DNA of 38,095 nt. It comes from Acidobacteriota bacterium. Lineage in GTDB: Bacteria > Acidobacteriota > Vicinamibacteria > Vicinamibacterales > 2-12-FULL-66-21. The number at the start of each line of letters is the position of its first letter. Position 1 is the first letter of the stretch. A program made the position numbers and the translations under genes. The stretch spans positions 1 to 38,095 of the forward strand of contig JBKPRU010000234.1 of NCBI GenBank assembly GCA_046734675.1, in the 5' to 3' direction. Under the pieces are notes generated by a model. That model saw only the letters and a program-made list of their open reading frames with translations. It ran no database searches and was not told where the DNA came from. This document shows positions 8,135 through 31,307 of the stretch, piece after piece.

Positions 8135-8224
8135 GGAGAGATGGCCGAGTGGTCGATGGCGGTGGTCTTGAAAACCACTGTACCCGGAAGGGTACCGGGG
8201 GTTCGAATCCCTCTCTCTCCGCCA
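8135..8224 (+). tRNA. tRNA-Ser (anticodon TGA), encoded CCA
   Basis: GGAGAGA/TCTCTCC acceptor stem, GTGGT-CT-TGA-AA-ACCAC anticodon arm, long variable arm GTACCC-GGAA-GGGTAC, GGTTCGAATCC T-loop and GCCA end. Confidence 0.97.
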
Positions 8225-8254
8225 GCCTTCGTCGCCTGCGGCGACTTCGGCTGG
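8222..8254 (+). repeat. Hairpin immediately 3' of the tRNA (CCAGCC-TTC-GTCGCC-TGC-GGCGAC-TTC-GGCTGG)
   Basis: Two 6-bp stems with a symmetric TTC/TTC internal loop and no U-tract. Confidence 0.5.
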
Positions 8255-8316
8255 ACGTAGACTGCGCCGCGCTCCGAAGGCGCCGTGCCTCGTGCTTCTC
8301 CTCCGCCGCCCGGATA

Positions 8317-8325
8317 TGGCATAAT
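8317..8325 (+). promoter_or_regulatory. Extended -10 promoter TG-G-CATAAT for the leader peptide
   Basis: The CATAAT box ends 9 nt before ATG 8335 and there is no SD, so the transcript is near-leaderless. Confidence 0.6.
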
Positions 8326-8334
8326 CGCCGGACC

Positions 8335-8406
8335 ATGTTCCGCGGTCTGGTGATTCGCCTCGTCCTTACCAGCGTCGGCATTAACCTGCCGACGCGCACG
8401 GGGTGA
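8335..8406 (+). CDS. Branched-chain amino acid attenuator leader peptide MFRGLVIRLVLTSVGINLPTRTG (23 aa)
   Basis: 9 of 23 residues are Leu/Val/Ile (core LVIRLVL), plus 3 Thr. It uses AT-ending codons (ATT twice, CTT). Its stop codon lies in the antiterminator arm. Confidence 0.8.
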   Translation: MFRGLVIRLVLTSVGINLPTRTG

Positions 8407-8477
8407 TGTAGCCAGACGCAACACGATCAGGTTTTCAAGGGCCATCACCCTCACCGGTGATGGCCCTTTTGTTTTTT
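8345..8477 (+). promoter_or_regulatory. Ribosome-dependent transcription attenuator
   Basis: Mutually exclusive pairings: GTCTGG(8345-50)/CCAGAC(8412-17); antiterminator GGGTGATG(8401-08)/CATCACCC(8443-50); and the terminator at 8437-8477. There is also an internal hairpin GCGTCGGCA/TGCCGACGC (8372-8395). Confidence 0.8.
8437..8477 (+). terminator. Intrinsic terminator of the attenuator
   Basis: 13-bp stem AAGGGCCATCACC / loop CTCACC / GGTGATGGCCCTT, followed by TTGTTTTTT. Confidence 0.9.
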
Positions 8478-8492
8478 CAGGGAGGGACGACC

Positions 8493-8666
8493 ATGAACGT
8501 CAGCCGATTCGATGCGGACGCGGCCGCGGTACCCGCAGACGGTACGACACGGCCCCAATCAGACGGGGACGTCCGTCACGCGATGCGCGCGGCTCCGGAG
8601 TATGGAGACGACGACCAGCAGGCCGAAGAACCGGCGGAGGAGCCCGGCTACGGCCACGGCGTCTAG
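8493..8666 (+). CDS. 57-aa acidic, probably disordered small protein ending in GYGHGV (same C-terminus as LeuA)
   Basis: Strong SD GGAGG at 8481-8485 and GC3-rich codons. Sequence MNVSRFDADAAAVPADGTTRPQSDGDVRHAMRAAPEYGDDDQQAEEPAEEPGYGHGV. Confidence 0.75.
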   Translation: MNVSRFDADAAAVPADGTTRPQSDGDVRHAMRAAPEYGDDDQQAEEPAEEPGYGHGV

Positions 8667-8683
8667 TCGTCGGACGCAGGCGA

Positions 8684-8965
8684 TCACAATCGCGGCGCGA
8701 CGCGAACCTGCGCTTCGGCGGACGTGATCACCGTGTGGACCTCGAAGTCCACGAGGTCGGACCAGTTTGCCATCCACTGATCGAGCAGCGCGCGATCCTC
8801 TGTCTCCATCAACTGGAAGCAGCGCTCCAGTCGCTCGTCCACCCAGCTGTTCACGTACCGCACGCCCTCGGGGGCGAGACGCCCGCGATCGCGGAACCGG
8901 CGATACACGGACGCCGCGTCACCTCCCTTGAACCGCTCGACGATCATGTAAAGCGTCGTCGCCAC
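8684..8965 (-). CDS. DUF3303-like small protein
   Basis: LYMIVERFKGGDAASVYRRFRDRGRLAPEGVRYVNSWV...CFQLME...WMANWSDLVDFEVHTV. TAGAAT lies 6 nt before the GTG. Confidence 0.8.
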   Translation of the reverse strand: MATTLYMIVERFKGGDAASVYRRFRDRGRLAPEGVRYVNSWVDERLERCFQLMETEDRALLDQWMANWSDLVDFEVHTVITSAEAQVRVAPRL

Positions 8966-25767: not shown

Positions 25768-26823
25768 TTACCGTTCGATCCGCGACACGATCGCGCGTGC
25801 GAGCGCGCTGCAGGACGCGGGGCCACCCAGGTCCCGCGTCAACTCTCCGCCGGCGGTCACCTCCGCGACCGCCGATTCAATCAGCGACGCCTCCTGTTCC
25901 AGCTTCAACGCATGCCGCAGCAGCATCGCGGCTGAAAGCACCGCGCCGATCGGATTGGCGATATCGCGTCCTGCGATGTCGGGAGCGGAACCATGCACTG
26001 GCTCGAACAAGCCTGGTCCGTCGCCGAGACTCGCCGAGGGCAGCAGCCCCAGCGATCCAACGACCGCGCCCGCTTCGTCCGACAGGATGTCGCCGAACAT
26101 GTTTTCGGTCACGATGACATCGAACGACGCGGGGGCAAGCGTGATGCGCATCGCGCACGAATCGACGAGCATGTGTTCGAGCTTGACGTCCGGAAACTCC
26201 GACGCGACTTCACCAACCACGGTGCGCCACAGGCGTGACGTCTCGAGCACGTTCATCTTGTCGACGGAGGTTACGCGTTTGTGACGCCCGCGCGCAGCGG
26301 TAAACGCGACGCGCGTGATGCGTGCGATCTCTTCGCGCGAGTAGCGCATCGTGTTCCACGCGGACGCGCCGTCCGGCGCGATGCCCCGCGGTTCGCCGTA
26401 GTACAAGCCGCCGGTCAGCTCACGGACGACCAGCATGTCGGTGCGCCCGAGCACTTCCGGTTTCAGCGGACCGGCGCCTTCGAGGCCCGGCCACACCCGC
26501 GCCGGACGCAGGTTCGCATAGAGCCCTAGCTGCTGCCGCAGTTGCAGCAGCGCGGATTCAGGCCGTTGTCCGGGAGGACGGTTGTCGAACTCCGGGGCGC
26601 CGACGGCGCCAAGCAGGATTGCGTCCGCGGCCTTGCACGCGGCCAGCGTCTGGGGAGGAAGCGGCGGCAGGTCCTGGCGGATCGCCGCGCCGCCAATCGC
26701 GAACGTCTCGAAATCGAAATGGTGATCGAAGCGGTGGGCGGCCGCAGCGAGCGCGGCCTGCGCTGCCGCGGTGACTTCAGGCCCGATGCCGTCACCTGGC
26801 AGCAGAACGATACGACTGTGCAC
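25768..26823 (-). CDS. leuB: 3-isopropylmalate dehydrogenase
   Basis: LPGDGIGPEV, LYANLRP, VRELTGGLYYG, NMFGDILSDEA, EPVHGSAPDIAG. Confidence 0.96.
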   Translation of the reverse strand: MHSRIVLLPGDGIGPEVTAAAQAALAAAAHRFDHHFDFETFAIGGAAIRQDLPPLPPQTLAACKAADAILLGAVGAPEFDNRPPGQRPESALLQLRQQLGLYANLRPARVWPGLEGAGPLKPEVLGRTDMLVVRELTGGLYYGEPRGIAPDGASAWNTMRYSREEIARITRVAFTAARGRHKRVTSVDKMNVLETSRLWRTVVGEVASEFPDVKLEHMLVDSCAMRITLAPASFDVIVTENMFGDILSDEAGAVVGSLGLLPSASLGDGPGLFEPVHGSAPDIAGRDIANPIGAVLSAAMLLRHALKLEQEASLIESAVAEVTAGGELTRDLGGPASCSALARAIVSRIER

Positions 26824-26838
26824 CGGTGATCAGTCTAC

Positions 26839-28098
26839 TTACACGCCGTGCCCGTAGCCAAATTCCGCCGGCGTCGTCCCGAGTTCCTGAATCGCCGCTC
26901 CTGCGTTCTGCGACGGCGCCGGCGCGGTGGCGGGCGGCGCGGTCCCGAGCGTCTGCGACACGATGTAGGCGAGGTCGCGATCGCTCACGACTTTCTCGCG
27001 GTCCGCGTGCTCGATCACGGCGCGATACACGCGATCGAGATCCCGGCGTTCGAGCGTCAACCCGATCTGCTCGCAGCGGCTCTGCACGGCGTGACGTCCG
27101 GAATGCTTGCCGAGCACGAGCGTCGCCTGCGGCACGCCGACTTCCTCCGGTCGCATGATCTCGTAGGTGCGGCGATCCTTCAGCATGCCGTCCTGGTGAA
27201 TGCCTGCTTCGTGCGCGAACGCATTGCGGCCGACGATGGCCTTGTTCGCCTGCACGCCTTCGCCGGTGAGCGCGGTGAGCAGCTGGCTCGAGGCGTAAAT
27301 CTCGCGCGGGTTGATGTTGGTCGTGAACGGCAGGCGATCCGCGCGCACGCGCGTCGCCATCACGAGCTCTTCGAGCGAGGCGTTCCCCGCACGCTCGCCG
27401 ATGCCATTGATCGTGCACTCCACCTGGCGCACGCCGGCGCAGACCGCCGAGAGCGAGTTCGCCACCGCGAGGCCGAGGTCATCGTGGCAGTGCGTGCTGA
27501 ACGTCACCTGGTCGGAGCTCGGGACGCGATTGATCATTCCGTGGAAGAAGTCTTTGATTTCATCCGGCGTCGAGTAGCCGACGGTATCGGGAAGGTTGAT
27601 CGTCTTCGCGCCCGACTGAATCACCGCCTCGATCACGCGCCAGAGGAAATCCGGATCGCTGCGCGTCGCATCCTCTGCCGAGAACTGCACGTCGTCTGTG
27701 TACTGACGGGCCAGGCGAACCGCGTCCATGGCCGTACGGAGACACTCTTCACGGGTCATCCGCAGCTTGCGCTCGAGATGCAGGTCGGAGGTGGCGAGGA
27801 ACACGTGAATGCGACGGCGCGGCGCGGGCGTCAGCGCCCAGGCGGCACGCTCGATGTCCTTGGCGTGGCAGCGCGCGAGCGCGGCAATCACCGGTCCGCG
27901 GATGTGCGTCGCCACCATGCGGACGGCCTCGGCGTCCGCGTCGGACGCGATCGGGAAGCCGGCCTCGATGATATCCACCCCCAGGGCCGTCAGCTGATGG
28001 GCGAGCTTCAACTTCTCGTCGATGCGCAACGAAAAGCCCGGCGCCTGCTCGCCGTCGCGCAAAGTCGTGTCGAATATCGTCAACCGGTCAGCGGACAT
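26839..28098 (-). CDS. leuA: 2-isopropylmalate synthase, short form without the C-terminal regulatory domain, ending in a low-complexity tail and GYGHGV
   Basis: [56 protein letters not shown]. 419 aa; SD GGAGG. Confidence 0.93.
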
Positions 28099-28178: not shown

Positions 28179-29051
28179 ATGCAGCTCCCGGATCTTGCTG
28201 CTTTTCTGGCCGTCGCCTCCGAACGGAGCTTTTCAGCCGCCGCCCGGCGGCTGCACCGCACCCAGCCCGCGATCAGCCAGGCGGTCCGCCGCATCGAGGA
28301 AGAGCTCGGCGAACGCCTCTTCGACCGATCGTCTCGAGATGGAACACTGACGGAAGCCGGGCGCTTGCTGCAGGACTACGCGCAGCGGCTGCTCGGGCTC
28401 GCCGCAGAAGCCCAGGTCGCCGTCCGCGAGCTCCAGGAAGTCCGCAAAGGGCGCGTCATCATCGGCGCCAACGAAGCGGCGGTCCACACCCTGCTGCCGC
28501 ACATCGAGAAGTTCTCGAGCTCACACCCCGGGGTCGCCATCGATGTGCGGCGCATCTCGTCGCGCCAGATGTCCGCGGCGGTGCTCGATCGCTCCATCGA
28601 CTTCGGCGTCATGACCTTTCAGCCGTCCGACCGCGGCATCCAGGCGCTGTCGCTCGGCACGGACGAAATCGTCCTCCTCACCGCGCCGATGCATGGGCTC
28701 GCAAGCCGCAAGCGCGCAACGCTCGAAGAAGTCGGACGGGAGGCCGTCATCGCGCATAACGATCCGTCGCCGACGCGCGACCGGGTCCTGCGCGCCTATG
28801 AACGAAAGCGGACCGCCATCAACATCCAGATTTCGCTGCCCAGCCTCGACGGCATCAAGCGCGCGGTGGAGATGGGGATCGGCGTCGCGCTGCTGCCGCG
28901 GCGTTGCGCGCTGACCGAGATTGCGCGCGGCAGCCTGGTTGCGGTGAAGGTGCCGGAGCTCGGCGCCACGCGCCAGGTGCGGCTCGTCTACCGAAAGACC
29001 GGCGAGCGCAGCCGCGCTGCGGAGGCCTTTCTCGAAGTGATCAGAGGATAG
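28179..29051 (+). CDS. LysR family transcriptional regulator, divergent from leuA
   Basis: FLAVASERSFSAAARRLHRTQPAISQAVRRIEEELGERLFDR...LTEAG, plus a substrate-binding domain. Confidence 0.95.
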   Translation: MQLPDLAAFLAVASERSFSAAARRLHRTQPAISQAVRRIEEELGERLFDRSSRDGTLTEAGRLLQDYAQRLLGLAAEAQVAVRELQEVRKGRVIIGANEAAVHTLLPHIEKFSSSHPGVAIDVRRISSRQMSAAVLDRSIDFGVMTFQPSDRGIQALSLGTDEIVLLTAPMHGLASRKRATLEEVGREAVIAHNDPSPTRDRVLRAYERKRTAINIQISLPSLDGIKRAVEMGIGVALLPRRCALTEIARGSLVAVKVPELGATRQVRLVYRKTGERSRAAEAFLEVIRG

Positions 29052-29060
29052 TCGACGCGA

Positions 29061-29672
29061 TCACCACGTGTTGGTGACGTAGGGCAGCCGCTTCGCGACG
29101 CCGCGCACCTCGTCGAAATTCTCGAGCAGGAGACCGGTCGCGTCCCAGCTGCCATCGAGAAAAGACTCGCGCGTTGCCGACGGAAGCGCAATCTCGTACT
29201 CCTTCCCCGCCGCCTTGACGCGCATCGACCGGAAATCGATCGTCACCTCAGTCGAGGGGTTCGCTTCCACCGCATCCATCAACGCATCGAGCGTGGCGCG
29301 CGACGCGGTCGGGCACGGCATGCCGAGGGCGACGGAGTTGCCGAAGAAGATCTCCGAGAAGGACTGCCCGAGGACGGCGCGGATGCCGCGCCGGCGAATG
29401 GCCTGGGGCGCGTGCTCGCGCGACGATCCGCACCCGAAATTCGAGTGCACGAGCATGATTGACGCGCCCGCGTACTTCGGGTTCGAGACCGGATGCGGCA
29501 TGCCGCCGCGCGCGTCCGCTTCATGCCGGTCGTCCTCGAAGAGATGATCCTCGAGTCCTTCGAAGGAAACCGACTTCAGGAAGCGGGCCGGGATGATGCG
29601 ATCGGTGTCGATGTCGTCGCCGCGCATCGGCAGCGCGGTGCCGCGGATGTCGGTGAGGCGCTCAACGGCCAA
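29061..29672 (-). CDS. leuD: 3-isopropylmalate dehydratase small subunit
   Basis: [37 protein letters not shown]. Confidence 0.95.
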
Positions 29673-31059
29673 TGGTGGCCTCCGCTGCCGCGAACTCCCG
29701 CACGTCCACGACCTCTCCCGCTACGGCCGCGGCCGCGACCATTGCGGGACTCATGAGCAGCGTGCGCCCGGTCGGACTTCCCTGGCGTCCCTTGAAGTTG
29801 CGGTTCGACGATGACGCGCAGACCTCGCGTCCTTCGAGACGATCCGGATTCATCGCGAGGCACATCGAACAGCCGGCGCCGCGCCACTCGAACCCGGCTT
29901 CGGTGAACACGCGATCGAGGCCCTCGCGCTCGGCCGCAGCCCGCACGCTCTGCGATCCGGGGACGACGAGCGCCTTTACGTGCGGCGCGACGTGGTGGCC
30001 GCGCAGGATCCGCGCGGCCTCGCGCAAATCCGACAGGCGTCCGTTCGTGCACGAGCCCACGAACGCGACGTCGATCTTCGTGCCTTTCAACGGCTGCCCG
30101 GGACGGAAGCCCATGAACTCGAGGGCCTCCTGATCGCCGGTCGACGGGATCCGCTCGTCCACCGCGAGGGACTGCCCGGGATTGATCCCCCACGTCACCG
30201 TCGGCTGAATCGCCGCCGCATCCAGCGTCATTTCGTCGTCGTACGACGCGTTCGCGTCCGACGCCATCGACGACCACCACCGGCACGCGCGCTCGAAGTC
30301 GTCGCCGACGGGTGCGAACGGGCGTCCGCGCAGATAGGTGAACGTCGTCTCGTCGGGATTGACGTAGCCGACTCGCGCGCCGCCTTCGATGGACATGTTG
30401 CAGATCGTCATCCGCTCGTCCATCGACATGCGTTGGATGGTGTCGCCGGCGTATTCGTAGGCGTAGCCGACGCCTCCCTTCACGCCGAGGCGGCGAATGA
30501 TCTCGAGGATGACGTCCTTCGCGTAGACGCCGGGCTGCAGCCGTCCCTTCACGGTGATGCGCCGCACCTTCAGCGGATCCATCGCCAGGCACTGCGACGC
30601 GAGCACGTCGCGCACCTGTGAGGTGCCGATGCCGAACGCAATCGCGCCGAACGCCCCGTGCGTCGACGTGTGGCTGTCGCCGCACGCGATCGTCATGGCC
30701 GGCTGCGTCAACCCGAGCTCGGGGCCAATCACGTGCACGATGCCCTGCTGCCCGCTCGAGAGATCGAGCAGCCGGATCCGATGCTCGTGCGTGTTGCGCT
30801 CGAGCGACGAGAGCATTTCCTCGGCCATGAGGTCGATGAAGGGCCGCCGCTGATCGCGCGTCGGCACGATGTGGTCGACCGTCGCGATGGTGCGCTCGGG
30901 GAAGGCCACCGCCGCGCCGCGCGCGCGCAACATGTCGAACGCCTGCGGGCTGGTCACTTCATGAATGAGATGGAGGCCGATGAAGAGCTGCGTCTGCCCG
31001 TTCGGCAGGCGGCGGACGGTATGCGCGTCCCAGACCTTGCGGAGAAGCGTCGTGCCCAT
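29662..31059 (-). CDS. leuC: 3-isopropylmalate dehydratase large subunit
   Basis: [51 protein letters not shown]. Start at [13 protein letters not shown]. Confidence 0.96.
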
Positions 31060-31087
31060 GGTGAAGCGCCGATCGTAGCACGAGGGG

Positions 31088-31154
31088 GCGAGAGGCGATG
31101 GGCGAGGTGCGGGGCGCGGGGAGCGACGGCGCGAGGGCGACGGCGACGGCGACC
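31088..31154 (+). repeat. Degenerate tandem repeat: six GCGNNNN heptamers then four GCGANN hexamers
   Basis: gcgagag gcgatgg gcgaggt gcggggc gcgggga gcgacgg c gcgagg gcgacg gcgacg gcgacc. Confidence 0.7.
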
Positions 31155-31307
31155 GGTCGGACGGCTTCGACGTCCCCGCTAACTCGCCGCCGCACACGTC
31201 CCGACCTCGGCCGGCAATTTGCCTTCATTGCGCCTCGCATCCGTGCACCGCGGTTTTTCCCAGAAAAAAACGGCTGGTGGCAAGAACCTCGTACTCAGGA
31301 GGATTTC

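Follow-up and report, generated by a model that had tools for sequence, protein, structure and literature searches.

In the ssrA/SspB system and with the RssB anti-adaptors, a C-terminal peptide marks a protein for a protease, and a stress-induced small protein may block this. The hub-binding tails of SSB and FtsZ, as well as encapsulin cargo peptides, present a conserved terminus after a variable disordered linker and occur on unrelated proteins. Control of ilv, leu, thr and trp operons follows, in the classical model, from leader-peptide attenuation. Attenuator peptides of the ilv-leu type are described in Staphylococcus and Corynebacterium (PMC5794164, PMC10272879), and the extension of GapB is described as homologous to the C-terminus of CP12, its last residues sitting in the active site (PMC4436894). 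Here we report a locus with features of several of these systems. It lies in a 38,095-nucleotide stretch of an Acidobacteriota genome (assembly GCA_046734675.1, contig JBKPRU010000234.1, positions 1 to 38,095, forward strand), referred to below as the window. A small open reading frame (ORF) at 8493..8666 (forward strand) encodes a 57-residue microprotein that ends in the same GYGHGV tail as the window's 2-isopropylmalate synthase, LeuA, and is preceded by a predicted leader-peptide attenuator. The product is probably a small disordered protein of these soil Acidobacteriota that is switched on at leucine, valine or isoleucine shortage, and the shared tail points to an undescribed peptide-tag control layer over amino-acid synthesis.

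The precedent for the logic of this arrangement is CP12/GapB. There too, a small disordered protein and an enzyme have a common C-terminal peptide, and lineages carry the small protein alone or both bearers (PMC4436894, PMC13491260). The present locus differs in concerning branched-chain amino acids rather than the Calvin cycle, in having three unrelated tailed enzymes and in being under attenuator control. Neither the small protein nor the LeuA tail contains cysteine, hence there is no redox cysteine pair. With the ilv, leu, thr and trp attenuators the upstream element shares a codon-rich short ORF, alternative 2:3 and 3:4 pairings with a predicted 1:2 pairing, an intrinsic terminator and a leader stop within region 2. 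Unlike these, a single nearly invariant platform is reused before many operons of one Acidobacteriota order, and here it drives a microprotein instead of a biosynthetic operon. As to the attenuator, the class is a textbook one and only this member is new; new as well are the components, the pathway and the combination of a tail microprotein with an attenuator. The initial annotation of this DNA knew of no described system of the kind. That holds for the motif, for which no database or paper match was found, and does not hold for the shared-tail logic, given CP12 and GapB. A search of article texts for GYGHGV returned no paper with the motif, and searches on attenuators in Acidobacteria and on tail-mimic or decoy small proteins found nothing pertinent.

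A short C-terminal peptide after a flexible segment also recalls ssrA/SspB and the anti-adaptors. An ssrA-like tag was considered and rejected, as the tags of relatives' transfer-messenger RNA (tmRNA) end in LALAA or LAFAA, unlike the tail (ANSQLALAA in G047, ADTQLAFAA in G011 and ADTQLALAA in G001; genomes, families and contigs are given by our own G, f and C numbers, G000 being the own genome). No tmRNA was found by aragorn in the incomplete own genome. An encapsulin cargo peptide was likewise rejected: the family-1 shell, PF04454, was found in neither the own genome (0/1) nor near-complete tailed relatives (0/5), other encapsulin families not having been searched.

A C-terminal tail shared by a microprotein and amino-acid enzymes

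The small ORF runs from an ATG at 8493 to a TAG stop at 8664..8666 and encodes an acidic, predicted disordered protein with the C-terminus EEPAEEPGYGHGV; the codons of the conserved C-terminal motif lie at 8646..8663 (forward strand). A Shine-Dalgarno sequence, GGAGG (8481..8485, forward strand), is placed 7 nt 5' of the ATG, and by eye similar purine-rich sites also precede the small ORFs of G003, G001, G193, G376 and G195. A six-frame scan of the own genome (4,575,468 bases, 344 contigs) for GYGHGV followed by a stop, also in relaxed forms, returned only two sites, the small ORF and leuA; from residue frequencies, 0.0008 occurrences of GYGHGV-stop were expected. The tail is encoded by GGC TAC GGC CAC GGC GTC TAG in the small ORF and by GGC TAC GGG CAC GGC GTG TAA in leuA, which amounts to two synonymous differences and different stop codons. 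The initial annotation had given this tail and these codons for both genes; both are confirmed, and the pair is unique in the genome.

Selection on the peptide, as opposed to a DNA copy, had been the initial explanation of the codon differences, and comparison with relatives bears this out, the tail being invariant in close homologues and in distant small ORFs. A homologue of the microprotein at E < 1e-3 was found in one of 60 relatives, G003 of the same genus (56% identity), where leader, terminator and small ORF are all retained despite a different upstream neighbour. Scanning genome contigs with a small-protein pattern matched 45 stretches, one of which (on the G003 contig) was confirmed, and eight metagenome protein clusters of 55-66 residues are homologous to the small protein. 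The end EP[AP]EEPGYGHGV is unchanged in 10/10 close homologues, whose overall identity to the window protein is 46-89%; the last 12 residues of the ten aligned sequences are invariant save for one Ala/Pro position. Between families, the proline- or acid-rich body of the small ORFs cannot be aligned, and the tail is the sole conserved part.

The claim that both motifs follow disordered-looking sequence also stands. A structure model of the 57-residue microprotein contained zero secondary structure (predicted template modelling score 0.14), and in an AlphaFold model of LeuA (43 orthologues) residues 393-419 had a predicted local distance difference test score (pLDDT) below 50. The small-ORF protein matched nothing in Pfam, NCBIfam, PADLOC or PDB, nor did the G117 and G181 forms match any Pfam, NCBIfam or PADLOC family. 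A PDB profile search with 74 tails gave 0 matches at E up to 10, and the ESM Atlas offered only unnamed clusters, whose values of 0.81 and 0.76 fall short of the useful range. A search for longer homologous proteins yielded 58 candidates, none of which scored. On this evidence the ORF is a genuine, conserved gene whose product is predicted to be intrinsically disordered, with the C-terminal short linear motif as its only conserved and, on our reading, functional part.

The initial annotation had proposed searching other genomes for GYGHGV-like C-termini. The tail-plus-stop pattern was found in 166/401 sampled genomes of the order, with about 19 matches in a reversed control (our own count). 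By family, the exact tail was present in 46/49 genomes of f1, to which the window belongs, 19/19 of f9, 22/29 of f19, 6/7 of f10, 28/50 of f5, 21/50 of f2, 12/22 of f3, 3/50 of f6 and 1/27 of f7. It was absent from f11 (0/49), f8 (0/22) and f13 (0/12), in which GYGYGV also had no match and GYGHGI was not searched. The GYGHGV tallies include the unpublished genomes G318 and G306 with one match each, both of which were scanned for GYGYGV and had no match. Outside the order, a phylum-wide sample of about 364 genomes gave four matches, namely two tailed short LeuA proteins, one seven-codon chance frame and one end running into TGG in place of a stop. The two tailed LeuA proteins (G503 and G640) come from one genus of another family, by old ancestry or gene transfer.

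Tail bearers were classed by script and then by eye, whereby six LeuA fragments and one GYGHGI small ORF were moved. The unique tail-bearing ends read comprise about 86 short LeuA proteins, 43 small ORFs, two branched-chain aminotransferases (IlvE; G047 and G051) and one aspartate kinase (G072), with the IlvE and kinase identities assigned via NCBIfam; the counts apply to the sampled genomes and these enzyme families. Tailed small ORFs number at least 43; the 42 genomes that hold them belong to f1, f2, f5 and f7. The tail is carried by LeuA in the own genome and in most families of the order, by IlvE alone in G051, and by the small ORF alone in G195, G141 and G162. Since IlvE and aspartate kinase bear it in other genomes, the tail is not LeuA-specific. 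The common motif is [DE]-E-x-G-Y-G-[HY]-G-[VI]-COOH. Position -8 is Glu in 32/35 small entries and 55/79 LeuA entries, position -7 is Pro in 18/35 small entries, and the final residue is always Val or Ile. The variant GYGYGV occurs in 14/401 genomes, always on small ORFs (12 of them in f5), and GYGHGI occurs in G117. Synonymous codons vary freely among the tail matches, including between G000 and G003.

The second bearer in the window, leuA (26839..28098, reverse strand), encodes a short-form 2-isopropylmalate synthase of 419 residues, the committed enzyme of the leucine pathway, with the disordered linker and tail at about 26842..26946 and the tail codons and stop at 26839..26859 (reverse strand). 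Its product has HMGL-like and HCS_D2 domains and lacks LeuA_dimer (Pfam). It scores 601 bits against NCBIfam NF002086 (cut-off 532), aligning only to profile positions 4-386 of 516. Directly downstream lies leuB, for 3-isopropylmalate dehydrogenase (25768..26823, reverse strand). On the other side a LysR-type regulator gene (28179..29051, forward strand) diverges from leuA and separates it from leuD (29061..29672, reverse strand) and leuC (29662..31197, reverse strand). The equivalog score, the domains and the leuB, leuC and leuD neighbours all fit, and on these grounds the 419-residue protein is assigned as 2-isopropylmalate synthase. With the long-form enzyme it shares the triosephosphate isomerase barrel plus accessory domain and the leuCD/leuA-leuB cluster; unlike it, it has a disordered linker and tail in place of the leucine-binding regulatory domain. 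The absence of this leucine-feedback domain was claimed from the start and holds for the protein and for the genome, where no LeuA_dimer domain was found anywhere (83% complete). Short-form LeuA without a feedback domain is in fact the rule in the window's order. A complex prediction for two LeuA chains (residues 1-392) plus the microprotein gave no answer (score 0.25, mark 0.32, without controls) and counts neither for nor against an interaction.

Two more HMGL-like genes are present in the own genome (on C73 and C232, with open frames of 423 and 303 residues), and neither ends in the tail. In G101, contig C12 carries two inverted, near-identical tailed leuA 3' ends, 2.2 kb apart at about 474.4-476.6 kb; they lie near the contig end and both frames are broken, which may reflect a duplication or an assembly artefact.

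The small ORF is monocistronic in the window, and the next gene is convergent. This gene, for a DUF3303 protein (8684..8965, reverse strand), does not recur beside other genomes' small ORFs. Upstream, tRNA-Ser(TGA) (8135..8224, forward strand) is a neighbour in this genome only; as G003 has a PadR-like gene before the same leader and ORF, we regard the tRNA gene as context and not as part of the unit. G376 holds leader and small ORF in two near-identical copies on two contigs, the 54-residue frames differing at two residues. Tandem repeats of short units (7-mer and 6-mer) border the small ORF in two further genomes, downstream of it in G193 and between terminator and ORF in G083.

A predicted leader-peptide attenuator upstream of the small ORF

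All elements of the upstream region are on the forward strand. The leader ORF (8335..8406) has 23 codons, MFRGLVIRLVLTSVGINLPTRTG, nine of them for Leu, Val or Ile; by our own count, other small-ORF leaders have 7-11 such codons among 19-29. A core of L-x-L-[IT]-S-V-G-I-x-x-P-T is found in 11/13 aligned small-ORF leaders and is also retained in G173, where the stop lies four codons earlier. Region 1, formed by the Ile-Arg-Leu-Val codons (8355..8363), is predicted to pair with part of region 2 (8398..8406) as an anti-antiterminator. Region 2 (8398..8413) is the 5' strand of the antiterminator, a near copy of the terminator 3' arm with a 2-nt bulge, and the TGA stop of the leader (8404..8406) falls inside it. 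Regions 3 and 4 make up the intrinsic terminator (8437..8478), with a 13-bp stem at 8437..8468 and then a T tract. Inside the leader ORF lies a further hairpin of 9 bp, P1 (8372..8395), at which RNA polymerase might pause.

Folded at minimum energy, 8335..8480 reaches -70.5 kcal/mol (z -6.96), a stability matched by 0/200 shuffles. The terminator 3:4 folds at -25.3 kcal/mol (z -7.1) and the antiterminator 2:3, which excludes it by using its 5' arm, at -19.2 kcal/mol. Across 14 leaders, the 11 terminator pairs were paired in 100% of 154 cells, with two pairs changed on both sides, and the ten region 2:3 pairs were paired in 99.3% of 140 cells against 15.7-55.7% for slid controls; one antiterminator pair is compensatory (GC:10 AU:3 GU:1). 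P1 was paired in 81.7% of cells, with covariation no greater than in shuffles. Single-sequence folds predict the region 1:2 pairing in the window and, comparably, in the majority of 12 further leaders; since the partner segment shifts between leaders, covariation is absent at the level of the alignment. The region has no Rfam match. As judged from sequence and predicted folding, the element is a genuine three-stem leader-peptide transcription attenuator. The Leu/Val/Ile attenuator that the initial annotation had placed before the small ORF is upheld by the leader codons and by the conserved terminator and antiterminator.

A consensus promoter scan found no full -35/-10 site upstream of the leader. 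A candidate extended -10 box, TG-n-CATAAT (8317..8325), is kept in G000, G003, G001 and G241. It ends 9 nt 5' of the leader ATG, so that the leader mRNA may be leaderless or nearly so. In a sequencing-run search with 8250..8750, no run contained half of the words, the RNA runs reaching 0.04. Contigs from four metatranscriptome libraries (four studies) cover only 8327..8477, and since their likeness to the window is only 85-95%, they come from relatives. One of them runs past the terminator into a Shine-Dalgarno sequence and a similar ORF start, with DNA carry-over possible.

A covariance model of the leader, R1, was searched in 151 genomes of the order and matched 78, many of them at several sites, whereas the own genome holds just one copy. 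Matches extend to families that are scarce in or without the exact tail (12/12 genomes in f11, 11/11 in f13 and 12/12 in f7). The genes behind the 30 best R1 loci, with representatives confirmed by Pfam, are ilvD (12), the small tail ORF (6), an ATP-binding cassette (ABC) exporter (4), and ilvE, hom, pheA and LysR (2 each). The leader peptides suit the pathways: those of ilvD are rich in Val and Ile, e.g., MITRWERLVVVIVRVAGAIAPAATG, and a hom leader is rich in Thr. R1 was found upstream of 27/30 small-ORF loci (14/17 among loci outside model building) and of 2/2 tailed ilvE genes, 0/1 tailed aspartate kinase and 0/41 leuA loci. This places the small ORF, but not leuA, in the predicted starvation-induced set.

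LysR-type genes stand directly behind the attenuator in G028 and G045, with N-termini that by eye resemble the window LysR, and a few bases separate the small-ORF stop from the start of a LysR gene in G010 and G012. This placement suggests a cascade from tRNA charging to a LysR regulator and on to target genes. At 5/7 loci inspected in f5, a D-2-hydroxyacid dehydrogenase gene is found no more than about 1.5 kb from the small ORF, directly downstream in three. In NCBIfam it matches the D-2-hydroxyacid dehydrogenase family best, with a score short of the cut-off, and G000 has no close orthologue (34% identity). Speculatively, this enzyme may recover keto acids from hydroxy-acid analogues in times of shortage.

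Behind the same platform, G087, G154, G143 and G039 carry a fused ABC exporter (ABC_membrane plus ABC_tran). The candidate exporter leaders have no single-residue run, and at 3/4 loci they share a segment like GSI[QR]PY[FL]HG; such a leader could be peptide-sensing rather than starvation-sensing.

Interpretation of the shared tail

We tentatively favour the tail as a portable C-terminal docking motif for one common partner, with the microprotein as its starvation-induced free form. Scarcity of Leu-, Val- or Ile-tRNA would stall the ribosome on region 1; the antiterminator 2:3 would then form, the terminator would not, and the microprotein would be made. Its tail, with a free carboxylate, would bind one shared partner, and the microprotein would occupy that partner and compete with the tailed enzymes where these are present. 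We infer this binding, as well as the partner's identity and the direction of the effect. Candidate partners are a protease or adaptor, a regulatory or sensor protein such as the linked LysR regulators, and a scaffold. One shared reader fits better than an enzyme-specific role, because three unrelated enzymes carry the tail and so do stand-alone peptides, which in some genomes are its sole bearers. The LysR-type regulators are one candidate on account of their recurrent links to the small ORF, the attenuator and leuA. The LysR behind the G012 small ORF is 57% identical to an orthologue in G000, encoded on a different contig without a neighbouring small ORF, and only 24% identical to the LysR beside leuA. 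PDZ_2 domains gave 22 matches in about 16 frames of the own genome, too many to single one out. The fuller form of this proposal is slightly less assured: ExGYG[HY]G[VI]-COOH might be a portable peptide code with a dedicated receptor, by which tRNA charging with Leu, Val or Ile would become a post-translational signal on the activity, stability or assembly of LeuA, IlvE and aspartate kinase.

Several observations weigh against the docking model. The LeuA end was read in 19 genomes with a small ORF, of which 13 are tailed and six tail-less (G195, G141, G162, G083, G117 and G128); in G173, no LeuA was found. Small ORF and tailed LeuA are thus not an obligate pair, and competition with tailed enzymes cannot be the whole story. 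In family f1, just 4/50 genomes carry another exact tail in addition to that of LeuA, and a small ORF is missing from most of the genomes whose LeuA is tailed. In G371 and G348 the small ORF ends in GYGYGV while LeuA ends in GYGHGV, so the tails do not strictly co-vary. In several genomes the small ORF precedes, as first cistron, a LysR or 2-hydroxyacid dehydrogenase gene, so part of its conservation could serve expression of the downstream genes. The LeuA monomer model leaves the tail undocked, although this is weak evidence. These sequence and model analyses identified no partner of the tail, and no transcript of the own organism was found in the runs searched. The initial annotation fares less well here than for the gene and its leader. 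It had proposed that the tail stands in for the missing feedback domain; LeuA orthologues from tail-less families, 68-72% identical, are also short-form and end right after the last helix, so the tail did not replace that domain. Its picture of the microprotein as a mimic of LeuA specifically gives way before the tailed IlvE and aspartate kinase and the six genomes with a tail-less LeuA, and strict co-variation of the two tails, which it had proposed to test, is contradicted by the discordant pairs.

A third partner would be dispensable if the tail bound the enzymes directly, at or near the active site or dimer interface, in the manner of CP12 and GapB. The microprotein would then act in trans on tail-less enzymes, and fusion of the tail would have made the regulation autonomous. 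We consider this unlikely. The three distribution states (microprotein only, enzyme tail only, or both) do recall CP12 with GapA and GapB, and the invariable Val or Ile at the end is suggestive, since LeuA and IlvE use or produce these residues or their keto-acid forms. Among relatives that lack a regulatory domain the closest is homocitrate synthase, which is described as feedback-inhibited at its active site (PMC9860122). A single short motif would however have to fit three unrelated folds, and an inhibitor of LeuA or IlvE made during Leu/Val/Ile shortage is hard to rationalize. We know of no precedent for an activating role of such a tail. The undocked tail of the monomer model counts against direct action as well, and the tail has no cysteine pair or other switch.

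Two further explanations are weaker. That the ORF has no function in trans appears highly improbable as a description of its present state; it would then be what a deletion left of a tailed ilvE or leuA paralogue under attenuator control, or an upstream ORF kept only because its translation aids downstream expression. The idea of a deletion relic, raised in the initial annotation, survives as a possible origin: the 89-residue small ORF of G117 begins like IlvE and ends with the tail (11/23 N-terminal residues shared with the G051 tailed IlvE at a pairwise E of 8e-5), tailed ilvE genes share the same attenuator, and at least some microproteins may plausibly stem from such a gene by internal deletion. 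The LysR gene just past the small ORF in G010 and G012 and the nearby f5 dehydrogenase would suit a role in downstream expression. Against both versions, the tail is invariant under free synonymous change in 43 small ORFs of four families whose remaining sequence cannot be aligned, and neither a remnant nor an ORF needed only for its translation would keep six C-terminal residues and the stop position. The window ORF is in addition monocistronic, and retention in at least 42 genomes of four families means that the small ORF is not a decaying relic. Most improbable of all, a modifying or ligating enzyme would use the tail as its handle or substrate, with the small protein as a carrier or precursor in the manner of the LysW amino-group carrier, Pup-like modifiers or the precursors of RiPPs and peptide cofactors. 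A small, acidic, disordered protein with an invariant C-terminus does resemble LysW, Pup and the PqqA/MftA-type precursors. Its end is neither EDWGE nor GGQ/GGE, the lack of cysteine residues means that there is no zinc ribbon, and no ATP-grasp, radical S-adenosylmethionine or ligase gene recurs beside the small ORFs (13 loci). A tail on full-length housekeeping enzymes also does not suit a consumed precursor.

Significance for amino-acid control in the order

The attenuator defines an unannotated RNA family, and R1 marks an amino-acid starvation regulon (ilvD, ilvE, hom, pheA and LysR) in genomes without genetics. If a reader of the tail exists, this would be a bacterial case in which enzymes are controlled by a short linear motif that they share with a competing microprotein; CP12 and GapB have so far been the main documented example of such logic. 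If the docking model is true, it would amount to a layer of branched-chain amino-acid control without a described counterpart in bacteria. The order consists of abundant soil bacteria, and the tail offers a handle on how they may control leucine flux despite a feedback-free LeuA.

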